Part shown: in pieces, positions 15,384 through 29,305 of the stretch
How the letters are laid out: each line of letters begins with the position of its first letter
Numbering within the stretch: the first letter of the stretch is position 1
Source: an uncultured Erysipelotrichaceae bacterium
GTDB lineage: Bacteria; Bacillota_I; Bacilli_A; Erysipelotrichales; Erysipelotrichaceae
Assembly (NCBI GenBank): GCA_964401865.1
Contig: CAYNZZ010000013.1
Span: 1-31,951 of the forward strand
Direction of reading: 5' to 3'
Length of the DNA stretch: 31,951 nucleotides
Notes under the pieces: model-generated
What the model was told of the DNA's origin: nothing
Database searches by the model: none
Seen by the model: only the letters and a program-made list of their open reading frames with translations
Position numbers and translations under genes: made by a program

Positions 15384-15461
15384 TGGGGCGATTGACGAGA
15401 CTCGAACTCGCGAATGCCAGAGCCACAATCTGGTGTGTTAACCAGCTTCACCACAACCGCC
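15384..15461 (-). tRNA. tRNA-His (anticodon GTG)
   Basis: The reverse complement reads GGCGGTTGTGGTGAAGCTGGTTAACACACCAGATTGTGGCTCTGGCATTCGCGAGTTCGAGTCTCGTCAATCGCCCCA. It has the extra G-1 pairing with C73, the anticodon loop TTGTGGC, a GTTCGAG T-loop and an encoded CCA. Confidence 0.93.
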
Positions 15462-16866: not shown

Positions 16867-17516
16867 TTGAACTTGACGGCTATTTTTTTAATGTTGAAGT
16901 AGAAAGAAAAAATAATAAAAATATGTATCTATCTTTAAGTGGCAACACGATAAAGGTTCGTTGTCCTTATACTTTAACTGATAAGATGATTGTCGATTTT
17001 ATCGTGGCTAAAAAAGATTGGATTATTAAAATTTATAAAAAAAGCTTTGAAAGTCTTTCAACAATCAATGAACATATCTATTATTTGGGTAAAGAGTATT
17101 TCTGCATTTATTTAAATGGATCTAATAAAGTTAAGATAACTGATGATACCATATATTTGTATGGCAAAGATTTCGATAGTGCTGTTAAACATTTTTATAA
17201 ACATTCAGAGAATACCTTGTTTCTAAATCTAAAAGAGTATGATAAAGAGTTTTATAAGATATTGAATGATTATGGATATCATCAGATACCGGAAATAAGT
17301 TTTAAATATTTAAAAAGGTCGTGGGGCAACTGCTATCCTAAAAAGAACAAGATAAATCTTAATTATCGATTGATTCATTACCCTCCGATATGTTTAAAAG
17401 CAGTGTTCTTACATGAGTGTTTTCATTTTATTTTGCCTAACCACTCTAAAAGATTTCATGATTTGTTGAATTACTATATGCCCGATTATCAAAAGGTTAT
17501 CAAGATATTGCGATAA
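16863..17516 (+). CDS. YgjP/DUF45-type M48-like metallohydrolase
   Basis: ATGA overlap with degV. Motifs WGNC...HECFHF (HExxH)...NHSKRFHDLL..MPDY are typical of YgjP. Confidence 0.75.
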   Translation: MIELDGYFFNVEVERKNNKNMYLSLSGNTIKVRCPYTLTDKMIVDFIVAKKDWIIKIYKKSFESLSTINEHIYYLGKEYFCIYLNGSNKVKITDDTIYLYGKDFDSAVKHFYKHSENTLFLNLKEYDKEFYKILNDYGYHQIPEISFKYLKRSWGNCYPKKNKINLNYRLIHYPPICLKAVFLHECFHFILPNHSKRFHDLLNYYMPDYQKVIKILR

Positions 17517-17522
17517 TTACTC

Positions 17523-17551
17523 TTGAAAGAAATAGTGATAGCGATTACAAT
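17523..17551 (+). promoter_or_regulatory. sigma-A-type promoter (TTGAAA-17 nt-TACAAT)
   Basis: -35 at 17523-17528 and -10 at 17546-17551, beginning 7 nt after the ygjP stop. Confidence 0.6.
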
Positions 17552-17577
17552 TTAATTAAGGAAAGTAGGACATAATC

Positions 17578-17646
17578 ATGGGAATTGTCGCATTGAGTCA
17601 ATTAAATCAAAATTGCAGTTTCTTTTATGAATATGTTTTAATGTGA
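17578..17646 (+). CDS. candidate 22-codon leader ORF (MGIVALSQLNQNCSFFYEYVLM)
   Basis: AGGA lies 7 nt upstream of the ATG. The ORF sits between the promoter and the terminator, and its TGA (17644-17646) overlaps the terminator stem. Confidence 0.4.
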   Translation: MGIVALSQLNQNCSFFYEYVLM

Positions 17647-17666
17647 ACACATCTGTGTTCTTTTTT
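17645..17666 (+). terminator. rho-independent terminator / putative attenuator
   Basis: gaacac-atct-gtgttc followed by tttttt. The AGGAGG of the ankyrin gene starts 13 nt later. Confidence 0.65.
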
Positions 17667-17694
17667 ATATGTTTGATATAGGAGGTATATAGTT

Positions 17695-18366
17695 ATGAAT
17701 CAAACTATCAACAAAGAATTCTTTGATGCATGTGCTAGTGGTGATTACGCTAAAGTTTGCGCATGTATAGCAAAGGGTGCCGATGTCAATATGACAAACG
17801 GAGATGGTAGAAGTGCATTGATGCGTTCTGCTAAAAGAGGATATGTAGATATCGTAAGAACATTATTGGACAATGGTGCAAATGTTCGTTCACGTGACAA
17901 AAATAACAAGACTGCTTTAATGGGGGCTTGTAAGAAGGGTTATTTAGATATTGTTAAATTATTATGCGAAGCAGGGGCTGATGTTAATTCGCATGACAAC
18001 AATGGTCGTACTTCTTTGATGAGAGCGGCTTTTATGGGAGAAAATGCAGTTGTTGAATATTTAGTTGAACATGGTGCTAATTTAGATACTCAAGACAATA
18101 GAGGAAGAACTGCTTTAATGGAAGCTGTCCTTGCGTTCAAAGTTGATGTTGTCGAGTATTTAATTGAAAAGGGAGCTAATGTTAATGCTCAAGATAACAA
18201 TGGTTGCACATGTTTGATGCGTGCTAGTTATGGCGGATATGGCGATTTGATAAATTATTTGCTTGCAAATGGTGCAGATAAAGAAATCGTAGATAATGAT
18301 GGTAATAAGGCCATTCATTATTTGCGCACTGAATGCTTTGAAGAACTTAAAGGATCTTTGAAATAG
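17695..18366 (+). CDS. ankyrin-repeat protein (6-7 ANK repeats, no signal peptide)
   Basis: AGGAGG 9 nt upstream. The protein has a 33-aa periodicity with repeated G(R)TALM..A..G..D(I/V)V..L(L/I)..GA(D/N)VN..D..G units. Confidence 0.9.
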   Translation: MNQTINKEFFDACASGDYAKVCACIAKGADVNMTNGDGRSALMRSAKRGYVDIVRTLLDNGANVRSRDKNNKTALMGACKKGYLDIVKLLCEAGADVNSHDNNGRTSLMRAAFMGENAVVEYLVEHGANLDTQDNRGRTALMEAVLAFKVDVVEYLIEKGANVNAQDNNGCTCLMRASYGGYGDLINYLLANGADKEIVDNDGNKAIHYLRTECFEELKGSLK

Positions 18367-18375
18367 GTGGCATTT

Positions 18376-20448
18376 ATGAAAGACTATTTAGCAAATGATA
18401 TTCGTAATGTCGTTTTATTAGGGCATTCTGGTGCTGGTAAATCGTCACTTATCGAGGCGGCATTATATTTTACTAAGGCTATTGATAGAATAGGTAGTGC
18501 TAGCGACGGTAATTCTATTGTCGATTACGATCCGGAAGAAATTAAAAGAGGGCTATCTATTTATACTGCTATTGCACCTTGCGAGTGGCGCAATTATAAG
18601 ATTAATTTCATTGATACACCCGGCTATCTTGATTATGAAGGCGAAATGCGCGCCGGATTGTCGGTTGGCGATAATGCTTTAATCGTCGTAAGCGCTAAAG
18701 ATGGTGTTGAATCAGGAACTGAAAAAGCTATCAAATTAGTTAATAAGAAGAAATTGCCTACTATTTTCTTTGTCAATAAGATTGATGATGAACACGCTTC
18801 TTTTGAAAAGACATATGAATCTTTAAGAGATTCGTTTGGAAAATCTATCATTCCTTTTGAAGTACCGATTGTTGAAAATGGCAAAGTAATCGGTTCAATA
18901 AATATTTTAAGAAATAAGGCTTGGTACTATGCTGATTTATCAACACCAAAAGAAGTACCGGATGATTATAAAGATGTGGTGGAAGAATATTACAATCAAA
19001 TTGCTGAAGCTATCGCAATGACTGATGATGAATTGATGGATAAGTTCTTCTCTGGTGAACATTTTGATGAAAACGAGCTTGCAAAAGGTTTGAGAATTGG
19101 CGTTAGAAATGGCGATATTAGACCGGTATATTGCGGAAGTGCTACTAATGTTATCGGTATTGAAAGATTATTAGACTTAATTACTGAATATTTTCCTAAC
19201 TATGCAGAAAAAGGAACAATCACTGCTACTAATGAAAAAGGTGAGGAAATTCTTCTTGAAACAAATGAACACGATAATTTCAGTGCTCAAATCTTTAAGA
19301 CCGTTGTCGATCCATTTGTTGGTAAAATTTCGTATTTGAAGGTCATGAGTGGTGTTTTAACTAGTGATTCGCAGGTCTATAATCTTAAAAAAGATCAAAC
19401 TGAAAAGATTAATCAGATTTATGTTGTTAATGGTAAGATGCAAATCGCTGTTGGTAAACTATTCACTGGTGATTTAGGTGCAGTTGTTAAATTACAATAT
19501 ACAGAAACAAATGATACTTTATCAACCAAGGCTTGCCCAGTCAATTATCCAGATATTGAGTTCCCTAAGCCTATGTTAGGCATGGCGATTACTCCAAAGA
19601 CTAAAGCTGACGAAGATAAGATGTCGTTTGCCATTCAAAGAGTATTAGAAGAAGATCGCACATTGCGTTTAGAAAAGAATGTTGAAACAAAGGAACAAGT
19701 TCTTTATGCAATGGGTGAGCAAGCTCTTGATGTTGTGTGCAATAAATTGAAGAATAAGTACAAAGTAGAAATCGAACTTGCACCATACAAGATTCAATAT
19801 CGTGAAACAATCAGAGGAACTGTTGAAGCTGAGGGTAAACATAAAAAGCAATCAGGAGGAGCTGGTCAATATGGTCATGTATGGATTCGTTTCTCACCAT
19901 GCGATAGTGAAGATATGGAGTTTGATGAAGAGATTTTCGGTGGTGCAGTTCCAAAACAGTACTTCCCTGCAACTGAACAAGGTTTAAGAGAGTGCATGGA
20001 GAAAGGTGTGCTTGCCGGATATAAGGTTGTTGGTGTTAAAGCTACATTGTTTGATGGTTCTTATCATGATGTTGATTCAAAGGAAATTGCCTTTAAAGCA
20101 GCTGCTAGACTTGCGTATAAAGCAGGTATGCCAAAGGCAAAACCTATCTTACTAGAACCTATTGGTAAGGTAGAGGTGTTAGTTCCAGAAGAGTACACTG
20201 GTACTATCATTGGTGATTTCAATAAACGCCGTGGTATTATCATCGGTATGGAATTAACAGAAGACAATGAACAAAGAATTGAAGTCGAAGTACCGATGTC
20301 AGAAATGCAAAGATATTCTACTGAACTCCGTTCAATGACTCAAGGTCGTGGAACATACGTAATTGAATTTGATCGTTATGAACCTGCACCACAACCAGTT
20401 GCTGATAAAGTTATCAAAAACGCTAAAATTGAAGAGGACGAAGAATAA
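18376..20448 (+). CDS. EF-G paralogue of the EF-G2 class (translational GTPase)
   Basis: AGGTGG 5 nt before the ATG at 18376. G1 is GHSGAGKS, switch II is DTPGYLDY, and G4 is NKID. Domain IV/V motifs are GKHKKQSGGAGQYGHV and GSYHDVDS. It is collinear with my recollection of Thermus EF-G-2. Confidence 0.85.
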   Translation: MKDYLANDIRNVVLLGHSGAGKSSLIEAALYFTKAIDRIGSASDGNSIVDYDPEEIKRGLSIYTAIAPCEWRNYKINFIDTPGYLDYEGEMRAGLSVGDNALIVVSAKDGVESGTEKAIKLVNKKKLPTIFFVNKIDDEHASFEKTYESLRDSFGKSIIPFEVPIVENGKVIGSINILRNKAWYYADLSTPKEVPDDYKDVVEEYYNQIAEAIAMTDDELMDKFFSGEHFDENELAKGLRIGVRNGDIRPVYCGSATNVIGIERLLDLITEYFPNYAEKGTITATNEKGEEILLETNEHDNFSAQIFKTVVDPFVGKISYLKVMSGVLTSDSQVYNLKKDQTEKINQIYVVNGKMQIAVGKLFTGDLGAVVKLQYTETNDTLSTKACPVNYPDIEFPKPMLGMAITPKTKADEDKMSFAIQRVLEEDRTLRLEKNVETKEQVLYAMGEQALDVVCNKLKNKYKVEIELAPYKIQYRETIRGTVEAEGKHKKQSGGAGQYGHVWIRFSPCDSEDMEFDEEIFGGAVPKQYFPATEQGLRECMEKGVLAGYKVVGVKATLFDGSYHDVDSKEIAFKAAARLAYKAGMPKAKPILLEPIGKVEVLVPEEYTGTIIGDFNKRRGIIIGMELTEDNEQRIEVEVPMSEMQRYSTELRSMTQGRGTYVIEFDRYEPAPQPVADKVIKNAKIEEDEE

Positions 20449-20457
20449 TATTAAAGT

Positions 20458-20486
20458 AAAAGGTAGTACATATGCGCTACCTTTTA
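20458..20486 (+). terminator. terminator of the ankyrin/EF-G2 unit
   Basis: aaaaggtag-(10-nt loop)-ctacctttt. Confidence 0.6.
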
Positions 20487-20504: not shown

Positions 20505-20533
20505 AAAGCGAGGGTGCTTAATATCCTCGCTTT
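20505..20533 (-). terminator. terminator of the TauE gene
   Basis: aaagcgagg-(11-nt loop)-cctcgcttt. On the minus strand it is followed by tttattt. Confidence 0.6.
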
Positions 20534-20537
20534 ATAT

Positions 20538-21308
20538 TTATAGATAATTTACTAAAAGTATTGCAACTCCAAGTATGGAAAGTATTGCGCCAGTAACACG
20601 ATTTAATATGATAGGTGATGTCTTATTGGCAAATCGGGCGGCAATTCTAGCCCACAATAGAGTAAATAAAACGCATAGTATAAGTAAAGTGATATCTGGC
20701 AGTCCACCTATCATGAAATGCGATATTGAACCGGTTAAAGCAGTAAATGTCATGATGAATACGCTTGTACCAACTGCTGTTTTTAGTTCGTATCCTAAAA
20801 CGGATGTTAATATCAGCAACATCATTATTCCGCCACCGGCACCAACAAATCCGCATATGAAACCGACACCTGCACCACATACAATGGATTGAATTGCTCT
20901 TTTTTGAAATGATATACTATCCATTGCTTCGCGAGTTGTCATGACTGGTTTAACTAAAAATTTAATTCCCATTAAAAGAGTCATTACGGTAGAAAAACTG
21001 CCCATAGTTTGATTAGATACTAAACTTGAAGCCCAACTACCTACTAAAGTAAAAGTTAGCACGCTAATCATCATGATCAATCCATTTTTGATGTCTAGGT
21101 TTCCGTTTTTCTTATAAGTATATGCAGATATTGCGCTTGCCAATACATCAGAAGCCAGTGCTATTCCTACGGCTTGATAGGCTGGGACATCTAAAAAAGT
21201 GATTAACATTGGCGAAATTACCGCAGCAGCACTCATGCCTGCAAAACCAGTTCCTAGTCCTGCTCCCATTCCGGCAATAAAACAGATAAGAATTTTTGTT
21301 ATATTCAT
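20538..21308 (-). CDS. TauE/SafE-family sulfite/anion exporter
   Basis: Polytopic, Gly-rich membrane protein with duplicated halves (GMGAGLGTGFAG and GAGVGFICGFVGAGGG). The track start at 21326 is a TTG; I prefer the ATG at 21308, which has GGAAAGG upstream. Confidence 0.75.
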   Translation of the reverse strand: MNITKILICFIAGMGAGLGTGFAGMSAAAVISPMLITFLDVPAYQAVGIALASDVLASAISAYTYKKNGNLDIKNGLIMMISVLTFTLVGSWASSLVSNQTMGSFSTVMTLLMGIKFLVKPVMTTREAMDSISFQKRAIQSIVCGAGVGFICGFVGAGGGIMMLLILTSVLGYELKTAVGTSVFIMTFTALTGSISHFMIGGLPDITLLILCVLFTLLWARIAARFANKTSPIILNRVTGAILSILGVAILLVNYL

Positions 21309-29220: not shown

Positions 29221-29305
29221 CCCCGAATGGCGGAATTGGTAGACGCATACGACTCAAAATCGTACGGAGCAATCCATGCCGGTTCAAGTCCGGCTTTGGG
29301 GACCA
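29221..29305 (+). tRNA. tRNA-Leu (anticodon CAA), class II with long variable arm
   Basis: CCCCGAATGGCGGAATTGGTAGACGCATACGACTCAAAATCGTACGGAGCAATCCATGCCGGTTCAAGTCCGGCTTTGGGGACCA. It has the anticodon loop CTCAAAA and an encoded CCA. Confidence 0.92.

Follow-up and report, generated by a model that had tools for sequence, protein, structure and literature searches.

A probable coupling-type attenuator before an ankyrin/EF-G2-class gene pair in Erysipelotrichaceae

Organization of the locus

The window analysed in this work is a stretch of 31,951 nucleotides (nt) from an uncultured Erysipelotrichaceae bacterium (contig CAYNZZ010000013.1 of assembly GCA_964401865.1). It carries a short leader followed by two genes, the first of which (ank) encodes an ankyrin-repeat protein and the second a paralogue of the translation factor EF-G. 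The leader is made up of a promoter, a short upstream open reading frame (uORF) and an intrinsic terminator, and a first-pass annotation of the window had interpreted it as an attenuator controlled by the ribosome. When the sequence was read again, all elements of the leader and the operon were found where that annotation had placed them:

17514-17516: stop codon (TAA) of the ygjP-like open reading frame (ORF), read from the sequence
17523-17551, + strand: sigma-70/SigA-type promoter of the leader transcript, with TTGAAA (17523-17528), a 17 nt spacer and TACAAT (17546-17551); 10/12 match
17567-17570, + strand: Shine-Dalgarno (SD) sequence AGGA of the uORF, 7 nt 5' of the ATG, read from the sequence
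17578-17646, + strand: uORF of 22 codons, ATG at 17578 and TGA at 17644-17646, reading MGIVALSQLNQNCSFFYEYVLM and stop
17645-17666, + strand: intrinsic terminator from the terminator scan, stem GAACAC (17645-17650) and GTGTTC (17655-17660), loop ATCT, T6 at 17661-17666
17671-17676, + strand: GTTTGA motif in the interval between the T-tract and the ankyrin SD, recurring in relatives
17680-17685, + strand: SD sequence AGGAGG of the ankyrin gene, read from the sequence
17695-18366, + strand: gene of the ankyrin-repeat protein, 223 amino acids (aa), ATG at 17695, stop TAG at 18364-18366; Pfam Ank_2, 2.4e-57
18365-18370, + strand: AGGTGG, the SD sequence of the EF-G paralogue; overlaps the stop codon of the ankyrin gene; read from the sequence
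18376-20448, + strand: EFG II (EF-G2-class) paralogue, 690 aa, ATG 9 nt past the ankyrin stop; NCBIfam NF009381 and signature residues

The G and the A of the uORF stop codon are at the same time the first two bases of the hairpin stem, and the T-tract is separated from the ankyrin ATG by 28 nt only. In numbers the signals are ordinary: the region contained 34 promoter-like sites (31.8 ± 5.7 in shuffled sequences) and 4 terminator-like sites (3.2 ± 2.0 in shuffles), and the fold of the window leader had a z of -1.83. The leader signals within the single window sequence alone are not significant; it is the comparison with relatives that speaks against a chance layout.

Conservation of the gene pair

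A scan for the EF-G paralogue, with one genome per species, yielded 80 loci at 65-90% identity. All of them belong to Erysipelotrichaceae or to bins so labelled, and include Holdemania, Solobacterium, Bulleidia, Lactimicrobium, Stecheria, Galactobacillus, Thomasclavelia and unnamed metagenome-assembled genomes. Two of the 80 loci were uninformative for the ankyrin gene, their contigs beginning within the EF-G gene; in 78 of the 78 informative genome loci tblastn found a full-length ankyrin orthologue (61-87% identity) immediately 5' of the EF-G paralogue. The same adjacency was present in 22 metagenome contigs, and the identical ankyrin protein was met in the same gene order in many metagenome assemblies. 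The possibility, raised in the first-pass annotation, that the pairing might be restricted to this one genome can be dismissed: the adjacency is family-wide.

The two genes also keep their spacing and their pace of change. Ankyrin orthologues are 222-228 aa long, and in 78 of 81 loci the EF-G ATG follows the ankyrin stop after a gap of 4-21 nt (9 nt in the window). Among 77 distinct orthologues, 53% of the ankyrin positions and 48% of those of the factor were conserved to at least 90%, and the identities of the two proteins to the window copy were correlated with r = 0.97 (means 70.6% and 72.1% for the ankyrin protein and the factor). That the ankyrin protein evolves as slowly as a translation factor, to which its gene is welded, argues for a joint function. 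Their reading frames lie 9 nt apart on a common mRNA, and the two products probably work jointly. For the EF-G2-class factor the ankyrin protein would serve as partner, adaptor or chaperone, and we infer that the two interact physically; among the informative loci the factor was never without its tightly coupled, equally slow-evolving neighbour, which suggests that the neighbour is its dedicated partner. In conserved housekeeping operons of bacteria, ankyrin repeats are an unusual find, and full-text searches of the literature found no ankyrin/EF-G operon and no leader matching this one. The attenuator principle and EF-G2 proteins are known; their conserved combination, and especially the ankyrin partner, appear to be undescribed.

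The window ankyrin protein scored 191.9 bits with Ank_2 (PF12796) and 138.1 bits with Ank (PF00023), above the gathering score. The count of 6-7 repeats given in the first-pass annotation stood up to inspection of the 33-residue register, which accommodates six 33-residue repeats and a C-terminal partial repeat. An N-terminal hydrophobic signal was not found in the protein. Repeats 2-3 (aa 34-99) are nearly invariant in the orthologues, including the positions R39, K47, R48, K72, K80 and K81, which are among those that usually contact the target. The occurrence of basic Arg and Lys residues at these canonical target-binding positions suggests a fixed basic binding surface. As a separate observation, the TPLH motif is replaced by T(A/S)LM in every repeat of the window protein. 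The acidic C-terminal tail of EF-G2 was considered as a docking site for the ankyrin protein and rejected, the tail not being conserved; membership of the ankyrin gene in a defence system was likewise rejected, as PADLOC matches only generic ankyrin. A homologue search with the ankyrin protein returned mostly generic ankyrins of at most 46% identity and was of no use for tracing orthologues.

The EF-G paralogue matched NCBIfam NF009381 with 889 bits. It fell below the cut-off of the canonical EF-G equivalog TIGR00484 (641.8 < 659.4 bits), below the NCBIfam EF-G2 equivalog cut-offs, and far under those of tet_protect (329.3 < 775 bits) and tet_protect_M_W (244 < 1100 bits). The nearest solved structures by sequence were T. 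thermophilus EF-G (540 bits), S. aureus EF-G (522) and T. thermophilus EF-G-2 (1WDT, 434). The EFG II subfamily is defined by six positions at which it differs from EFG I (Margus et al. 2011, PMC3150367). These six, termed type I, are Gly instead of Ala at the start of G1, Leu instead of Thr at the end of the P-loop and Ser instead of Thr in G2, together with Thr, Gly and Lys/Arg in domain II (PMC3150367). In the window protein G16, L25, S61, T309, G353 and K372 align with A19, T28, T64, I316, A360 and G379 of T. thermophilus EF-G, so that six of six positions are of the EFG II type. Over 79 distinct orthologues the signature reads G in 79, L/V in 77, S in 79, T in 77, G in 79 and K in 79. The label 'EF-G2-class', which had been attached to the gene from the start, is borne out by these positions. 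No ribosomal-protein genes were identified among the EF-G2 neighbours examined, which places the gene outside the str operon (rpsL-rpsG-fusA-tuf). EFG II is always found together with another EF-G, EFG I, in the same genome (PMC3150367); a second EF-G was not among the genes of the window.

The catalytic His of the DTPGH motif is replaced by Tyr84 in the window protein (DTPGYLDY), and Tyr is present in 77 of the 79 orthologues. The tip of domain IV is canonical; it reads GSYHDVDS in the window and is kept as GSYH(P/E/D)VDS in the orthologues. M. smegmatis EF-G2 has the same His-to-Tyr change and was reported to be without ribosome-dependent GTPase activity. Given Tyr in place of the catalytic His, GTP hydrolysis by the factor is probably impaired or altered.

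Conservation and possible function of the leader

The leader was compared in several sets, among them a strict tally of 74 distinct upstream regions, 61 leaders for the promoter and folding analyses, and an alignment (A1) of 28 sequences. A hairpin with a T-run was found 5' of ank in nearly every relative. Its stems are unlike between clades (GAACAC/GTGTTC in the window, GTGAGTGC/GCATTCAT and GGATTACATA/TATGTAGTCC elsewhere, and the widespread AAGATGGA/TCCATCTT), which indicates that the hairpin structure, rather than one sequence, is retained across clades. Nearly all relatives also have a homologous uORF of 21-38 codons with an SD. GGAG and ATG are invariant columns of the A1 alignment (n = 28), the GGAG lying 6-10 nt before the ATG. 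For a test of the reading frame the nearest GGAG..ATG, picked without reference to ORFs, served as anchor. Of the 48 loci so examined, 25 had the first base of the stop at -1 relative to the stem and 4 had it at -2. The distances from ATG to stem (94, 100 and 103 nt, for example) show that indels preserve the frame, and leaders with TAG rather than TAA show a compensating 1-nt shift. The strict tally placed the stop between -3 and +2 nt relative to the first stem base for 52 of 74 leaders; 8 others have it within the hairpin, 4 have it 4-15 nt before the stem and 3 past the hairpin. The window stop, at -1, is in the majority register. The layout of uORF, stop and hairpin is kept even in clades without a sequence match to the leader profile, that of the window among them.

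The first-pass annotation had named beforehand three outcomes that would speak against its interpretation, two of them being a leader not conserved in relatives and an adjacency confined to one genome. Both of these were checked, the leader ORF and the hairpin proved to be conserved, and both results favoured the earlier reading.

The leader has its own promoter. TTGAAN-16/17-TACAAT, with a match of at least 9/12, lies 24-49 nt 5' of the leader ATG in 52 of 61 leaders. The genes upstream of it vary: on the same strand they encode YgjP, MscS, an ABC-2 permease or polyphosphate kinase (PPK), on the opposite strand a SIS-domain protein, a uridine-kinase-like protein or ZnuA. Since the upstream genes are so varied and some are on the opposite strand, the hairpin is not just the end of an upstream operon, and the leader belongs to the ank operon; a role of the hairpin as terminator of the dCMP-deaminase/degV/ygjP operon was rejected on these grounds. 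The earlier suggestion that transcripts ending at the hairpin might derive from that operon only, with ank starting on its own further downstream, is in part addressed by the conserved promoter of the leader and by its persistence next to different upstream genes. In most loci the start of the T-tract is 26-56 nt from the ank ATG, which is too short for a promoter and a 5' untranslated region, so ank would have to be transcribed through the terminator. The leader was also specific to this operon. A nucleotide profile of it gave one match per locus, always 5' of ank, in ~0.8 Mb of loci. An exact-motif scan of metagenomes gave 31 matches, of which 24 were genuine leaders. In all 24 either ank came next (and EF-G2 too, where the contig continued) or the contig ended first; the remaining 7 of 31 had no hairpin and were due to chance. 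Neither the ~0.8 Mb of loci nor the metagenome scan contained a leader 5' of other genes that would point to a regulon.

Taking these observations together, we consider it fairly probable that promoter, translated uORF with intrinsic terminator, and the ank and EF-G2-class genes form a three-part unit conserved across Erysipelotrichaceae, and that the leader is a coupling-type attenuator. Transcription would start about 7 nt past TACAAT. A ribosome occupying the last uORF codons or the stop while the polymerase transcribes the hairpin and the T-tract would cover the 5' arm, the hairpin would not form, and the polymerase would continue into ank and EF-G2. In the absence of such a ribosome, through late initiation, slow elongation or a fast polymerase, the hairpin would form and the transcript would end at the T-run. 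The leader would thereby report how closely translation trails transcription, with no antiterminator helix involved, and candidate signals would be ribosome availability, elongation speed, the level of nucleoside triphosphates and dwell time at the stop. Occlusion would be the switch, and the direction and nature of the signal are likewise presumed. A leader in which transcription depends on a ribosome at one stop codon points to control by translation status, and expression of the pair may, as had been proposed from the window, report on that status.

A leader that senses nothing would be an alternative explanation. It would give a fixed read-through as a damper or insulator, or its hairpin would mainly end a short leader RNA, without control by translation status. 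The individual signals are ordinary in comparison with shuffles, the window hairpin is weak, and no ligand-binding or alternative structure was found, all of which agree with such a leader. A constant damper, however, does not explain why the stop at the foot of the stem is kept through frame-preserving indels and through changes between TAA, TAG and TGA with 1-nt shifts, nor why SD and ATG are invariant; moreover, position experiments in E. coli (see below) indicate that a translated ORF ending at a terminator makes termination dependent on translation. We regard a non-sensing leader as quite unlikely.

The uORF peptide itself is largely free to vary. Substitutions in the uORF showed no codon periodicity (2397, 2289 and 2244 at positions 1, 2 and 3, with no third-position excess). 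VF.VQ, (L/V)(L/V)FGG and a final Phe (the last uORF residue in 33 of 67) recur in many leaders and are absent from the clade of the window, and no run of a single residue was seen. With the peptide sequence mostly free and with openness, length and stop register held, the uORF fits a leader in which the act of translating matters. A gene for a functional micropeptide, served by a promoter and terminator of its own and without a part in downstream control, is a highly improbable reading of the uORF: the complete mini-gene layout and the recurrent hydrophobic motifs would suit a micropeptide, but the codon differences are even, the lengths spread over 21-38 codons with largely free sequence, and the ORF is always welded to ank, with no space for a separate ank promoter. 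Re-initiation at an ATG within the stem (TAAGATGG, 2 nt past the uORF stop) was also considered, as was a further ORF that would end at the ank SD; both were rejected, since neither frames nor ends were conserved. In loci L066 and L072 a uORF of 51 codons runs through the whole hairpin and ends 5 nt before the ank ATG, and L038 is similar, without a stop at the stem foot; as natural variants these read-through uORFs should show constitutive read-through or translational coupling.

Alternative structures were searched for in several ways. In the window and 12 loci, an Rfam scan at gathering thresholds detected only tRNAs; two leaders scanned permissively gave only sub-threshold chance matches. 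In the RNAalifold consensus the terminator was the only conserved helix of the leader, and no antiterminator appeared. Folding with the 3' arm forbidden cost about the hairpin's own energy in 61 leaders, which means that there is no competing helix. The failure to find an antiterminator helix, noted as a caveat in the first-pass annotation, was thus confirmed both by RNAalifold and by constrained folding, and without an antiterminator the classical trp/erm/ABC-F logic is unavailable and the comparison with erm and ABC-F leaders is loose. Pairing of the U-tract with the ank SD is part of the minimum-energy fold of the window; as a candidate it was rejected, since it was not conserved (SD accessibility 0.525 versus 0.486 in shuffles, Wilcoxon p = 0.18). 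The window uORF also contains, at 17581-17622, a long-range hairpin GGAATTGT...ATTGCAGTTTC of about -6.7 kcal/mol followed by TTTTAT; it is not significant alone, and no conserved counterpart helix was seen in relatives. By eye, GTTTGA (or TTTGA) was found between the T-tract and the ank SD in about 25 loci (L014 4289-4294, for instance), even in Holdemania, where it lies ~250 nt from the terminator; the motif does not belong to any conserved helix that would sequester the SD.

These structural results bear on the possibility that the leader senses a drug or a stall, in the manner of erm, ABC-F, hflXr or Tn916 tet(M), an arrested uORF ribosome blocking the terminator and Ank with EF-G2 forming a stress-induced module for ribosome protection or rescue. 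A uORF with a terminator is the architecture of antibiotic-responsive leaders in Firmicutes, the regulated gene encodes an EF-G-fold factor like Tet(M), the motifs VF(I/V)VQ and LFGG and the frequent final Phe could be arrest sites, and an arrest in the last 3-4 codons would cover the 5' arm too. Against this, there is no antiterminator helix to relay an upstream stall, and a ribosome arrested at the motifs would stand 10-25 codons short of the stop, with the hairpin able to form and termination increased. The protein is far below the tet_protect cut-off (see above), the operon is a syntenic chromosomal locus throughout the family and not a mobile element, and the peptide lacks codon periodicity and, in the window, the motifs as well. 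Stall sensing is in our judgement unlikely.

Some blocks of the leader are conserved more strongly than the rest. The stem AAGATGGA/TCCATCTT is near-invariant across several genera (A1 columns 138-172; L035 4253-4279, for example) in leaders otherwise ~54% identical. Seven of its eight pairs are identical in 24-27 of 28 sequences, and it has no counterpart in the window. Upstream, 16 loci share the block CTTCTTTTCGGCGGGG, which codes for L-L-F-G-G, at a constant distance of 41 nt from the stop (L035 4209-4224), and the window has TTTCTTTTA at 17620-17628. Sixteen loci carry TTNTTT, the pause motif of B. subtilis NusG, at a constant -41 relative to the uORF stop, together with C(-1)/G(+1). The motif is found at -5/-7 from the stop in about 20 leaders, sixteen leaders have none, and the window has one at -24. 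It is plausible that pausing of the polymerase lets the ribosome catch up; that the G-run of CTTCTTTTCGGCGGGG would give GTP-sensitive pausing is an idea.

A regulator could recognise TTTTCGGCGGGG and AAGATGGA...TCCATCTT, possibly Ank or EF-G2 itself in an autoregulation as in ribosomal-protein leaders, or NusG could act there by pausing, the uORF being secondary. The near-invariant stem in an otherwise variable leader, the fit of the 16 TTNTTT sites with their flanking C and G to the NusG motif, and the conserved basic residues at the usual binding positions of ankyrin repeats 2-3 would be explained by such binding. The blocks are absent or degenerate, however, in the clade of the window and in several others that keep the layout, the terminator is the only conserved structure, the leader has no Rfam match, and pausing by NusG would complement the coupling model and not replace it. 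A protein- or ligand-binding leader appears very unlikely.

Several observations weigh against the coupling-type attenuator. The window hairpin, with 6 bp and a dG of -5.7 kcal/mol, is the weakest of the family (others range from about -6.4 to -15.4). Transcription is reported to run uncoupled from translation in Firmicutes such as B. subtilis, so that occlusion would need pausing of the polymerase, and TTNTTT is present in only part of the family. The absence of codon periodicity belongs here too, and the translation that we infer for the uORF is read from the conservation of SD, ATG, frame and stop only. The uORF of a few relatives stops 4-15 nt before the stem, within the hairpin or past it. 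Of the 74 leaders, seven failed the strict automatic criteria; on inspection most of these seven had the same layout with a weaker SD. The automatic uORF picks in L027 and L033 were spurious. L033 is the only genome locus in which no recognisable leader, uORF or adjacent terminator was present upstream of the ank ATG (4322); the upstream gene there is a divergent ZnuA-like gene, and the control region may have been lost or replaced. In Holdemania (L014 4075-4300, also L015, L016 and the metagenome locus L097) a GC-rich insert of ~240 nt separates the terminator from the ank SD. It had no Rfam match and leaves room for a further promoter or some other regulatory element. Finally, the AAGATGGA/TCCATCTT stem and the TTTTCGGCGGGG block are, on alignment, conserved beyond what the coupling model needs.

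If the coupling model holds, the leader would be a clean natural case of terminator occlusion without an antiterminator. A more far-reaching proposal is that Ank and the His-to-Tyr EF-G2 are an obligate two-subunit ribosome factor, produced under the control of a feedback sensor that consists of the ribosome itself. Read-through would reflect dwell at the uORF stop, and with it the capacity for termination, recycling or translocation, or else slowing of the polymerase at the T-rich and GGCGGGG tracts at low UTP or GTP. We hold this extension to be rather unlikely; if it were true, a GTP-sparing translocase or recycling factor would be made when canonical EF-G function or nucleotide supply lags. 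Reports on EF-G2-class proteins differ, describing a weak translocase, a mycobacterial stress-specific factor without GTPase and, in Bacteroides, translocation free of GTP hydrolysis. For their role the locus provides a testable partner and a regulatory input across gut, rumen and oral Erysipelotrichaceae. It overturns nothing established, and the existence of cultured members of the family makes direct tests possible.

The neighbours of EF-G2 are ygjP/ank upstream and tauE or tRNA-Leu downstream. The following features of the window lie outside the leader and the two genes:

15384-15460, - strand: tRNA-His(GTG)
20458-20486, + strand: terminator-like hairpin past the operon, AAAAGGTAGT-loop-GCTACCTTTT; read from the sequence, with low confidence, and absent from the list of the terminator scan
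20505-20539, no strand assigned: second hairpin, rich in GC, AAAGCGAGG-11 nt-CCTCGCTTT, lying where the EF-G2 and TauE genes converge; read from the sequence
29221-29305, + strand: tRNA-Leu(CAA)

The loop of the second hairpin exceeds the loop limit of the terminator scan; it is probably a bidirectional terminator. The order tRNA-His(GTG), a few genes, leader-ank-EF-G2 and tRNA-Leu(CAA) is kept in relatives (as at L035 7147-7233). In loci of Solobacterium, Bulleidia and Lactimicrobium the tRNA-Leu gene shares the strand of EF-G2 and follows it after ~100 nt. The window has 8.8 kb between the two, occupied by tauE, htrA, the gene of an FAD-dependent protein and others.

Comparison with known systems

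The first-pass annotation had likened the leader to those of Tn916 tet(M), erm and ABC-F genes. With erm, the ABC-F genes (msr, vga, lsa, vmlR) and hflXr it shares a uORF and a terminator before a translation-related gene. Their control is by drug-dependent arrest and an antiterminator/terminator switch, whereas the ank leader has no alternative helix, and this part of the comparison proved loose. The leader of Tn916 tet(M) (orf12) also has a short ORF and a terminator before the gene of an EF-G-fold GTPase, and the control proposed for it is a ribosome keeping up with the polymerase. Tet(M), in contrast, protects ribosomes and is encoded on a conjugative transposon; the window protein is chromosomal, syntenic and paired with an ankyrin protein, and stays well short of the Tet(M)-type models (329 < 775 bits).

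With the EFG II paralogues of T. thermophilus (EF-G-2, 1WDT), M. smegmatis and B. thetaiotaomicron the window factor has in common the six signature residues, the location outside the str operon and a G2 relaxed to xxxSx, and with the M. smegmatis protein also Tyr for the catalytic His. A difference is that its overall sequence resembles canonical EF-G (540 bits) more than 1WDT (434). In the literature searched, neither an ankyrin partner nor a leader was described for these three paralogues. A precedent for a dedicated partner of EF-G is given by the staphylococcal FusB-type proteins, accessory proteins that bind EF-G directly. FusB has an unrelated fold, which is not ankyrin, is a mobile resistance determinant and is not in an operon with an EF-G paralogue.

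Closer models are the coupling attenuators of the pyrBI type and terminators adjacent to a stop codon. The pyrBI and pyrE attenuators have no antiterminator helix, and T/U-rich tracts precede their hairpins. As in our model of the ank leader, a translated leader ORF (pyrL in E. coli pyrBI) brings a ribosome close behind the polymerase, and this closely trailing ribosome suppresses the hairpin of the intrinsic terminator (PMC5021804). The pyrL ORF, however, extends across the hairpin, and pausing that depends on UTP provides the signal, whereas the window uORF stops on the foot of the stem; the host of the window is of a Firmicute lineage, and the regulated genes encode a translation-factor paralogue and an ankyrin protein. 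In the E. coli tR2 series, moving the stop codon to 5 bp before the terminator lowered termination from ~90% to <10%, in a translation-dependent manner (Li et al. 2016, PMC4824070). The ank leader has the same geometry; with the stop a few bp ahead of the hairpin, it was the terminating ribosome that repressed termination in the tR2 series (PMC4824070). The tR2 series was an engineered E. coli construct with a long gene, whereas the ank leader has a natural, conserved and dedicated uORF of 21-38 codons with its own promoter.

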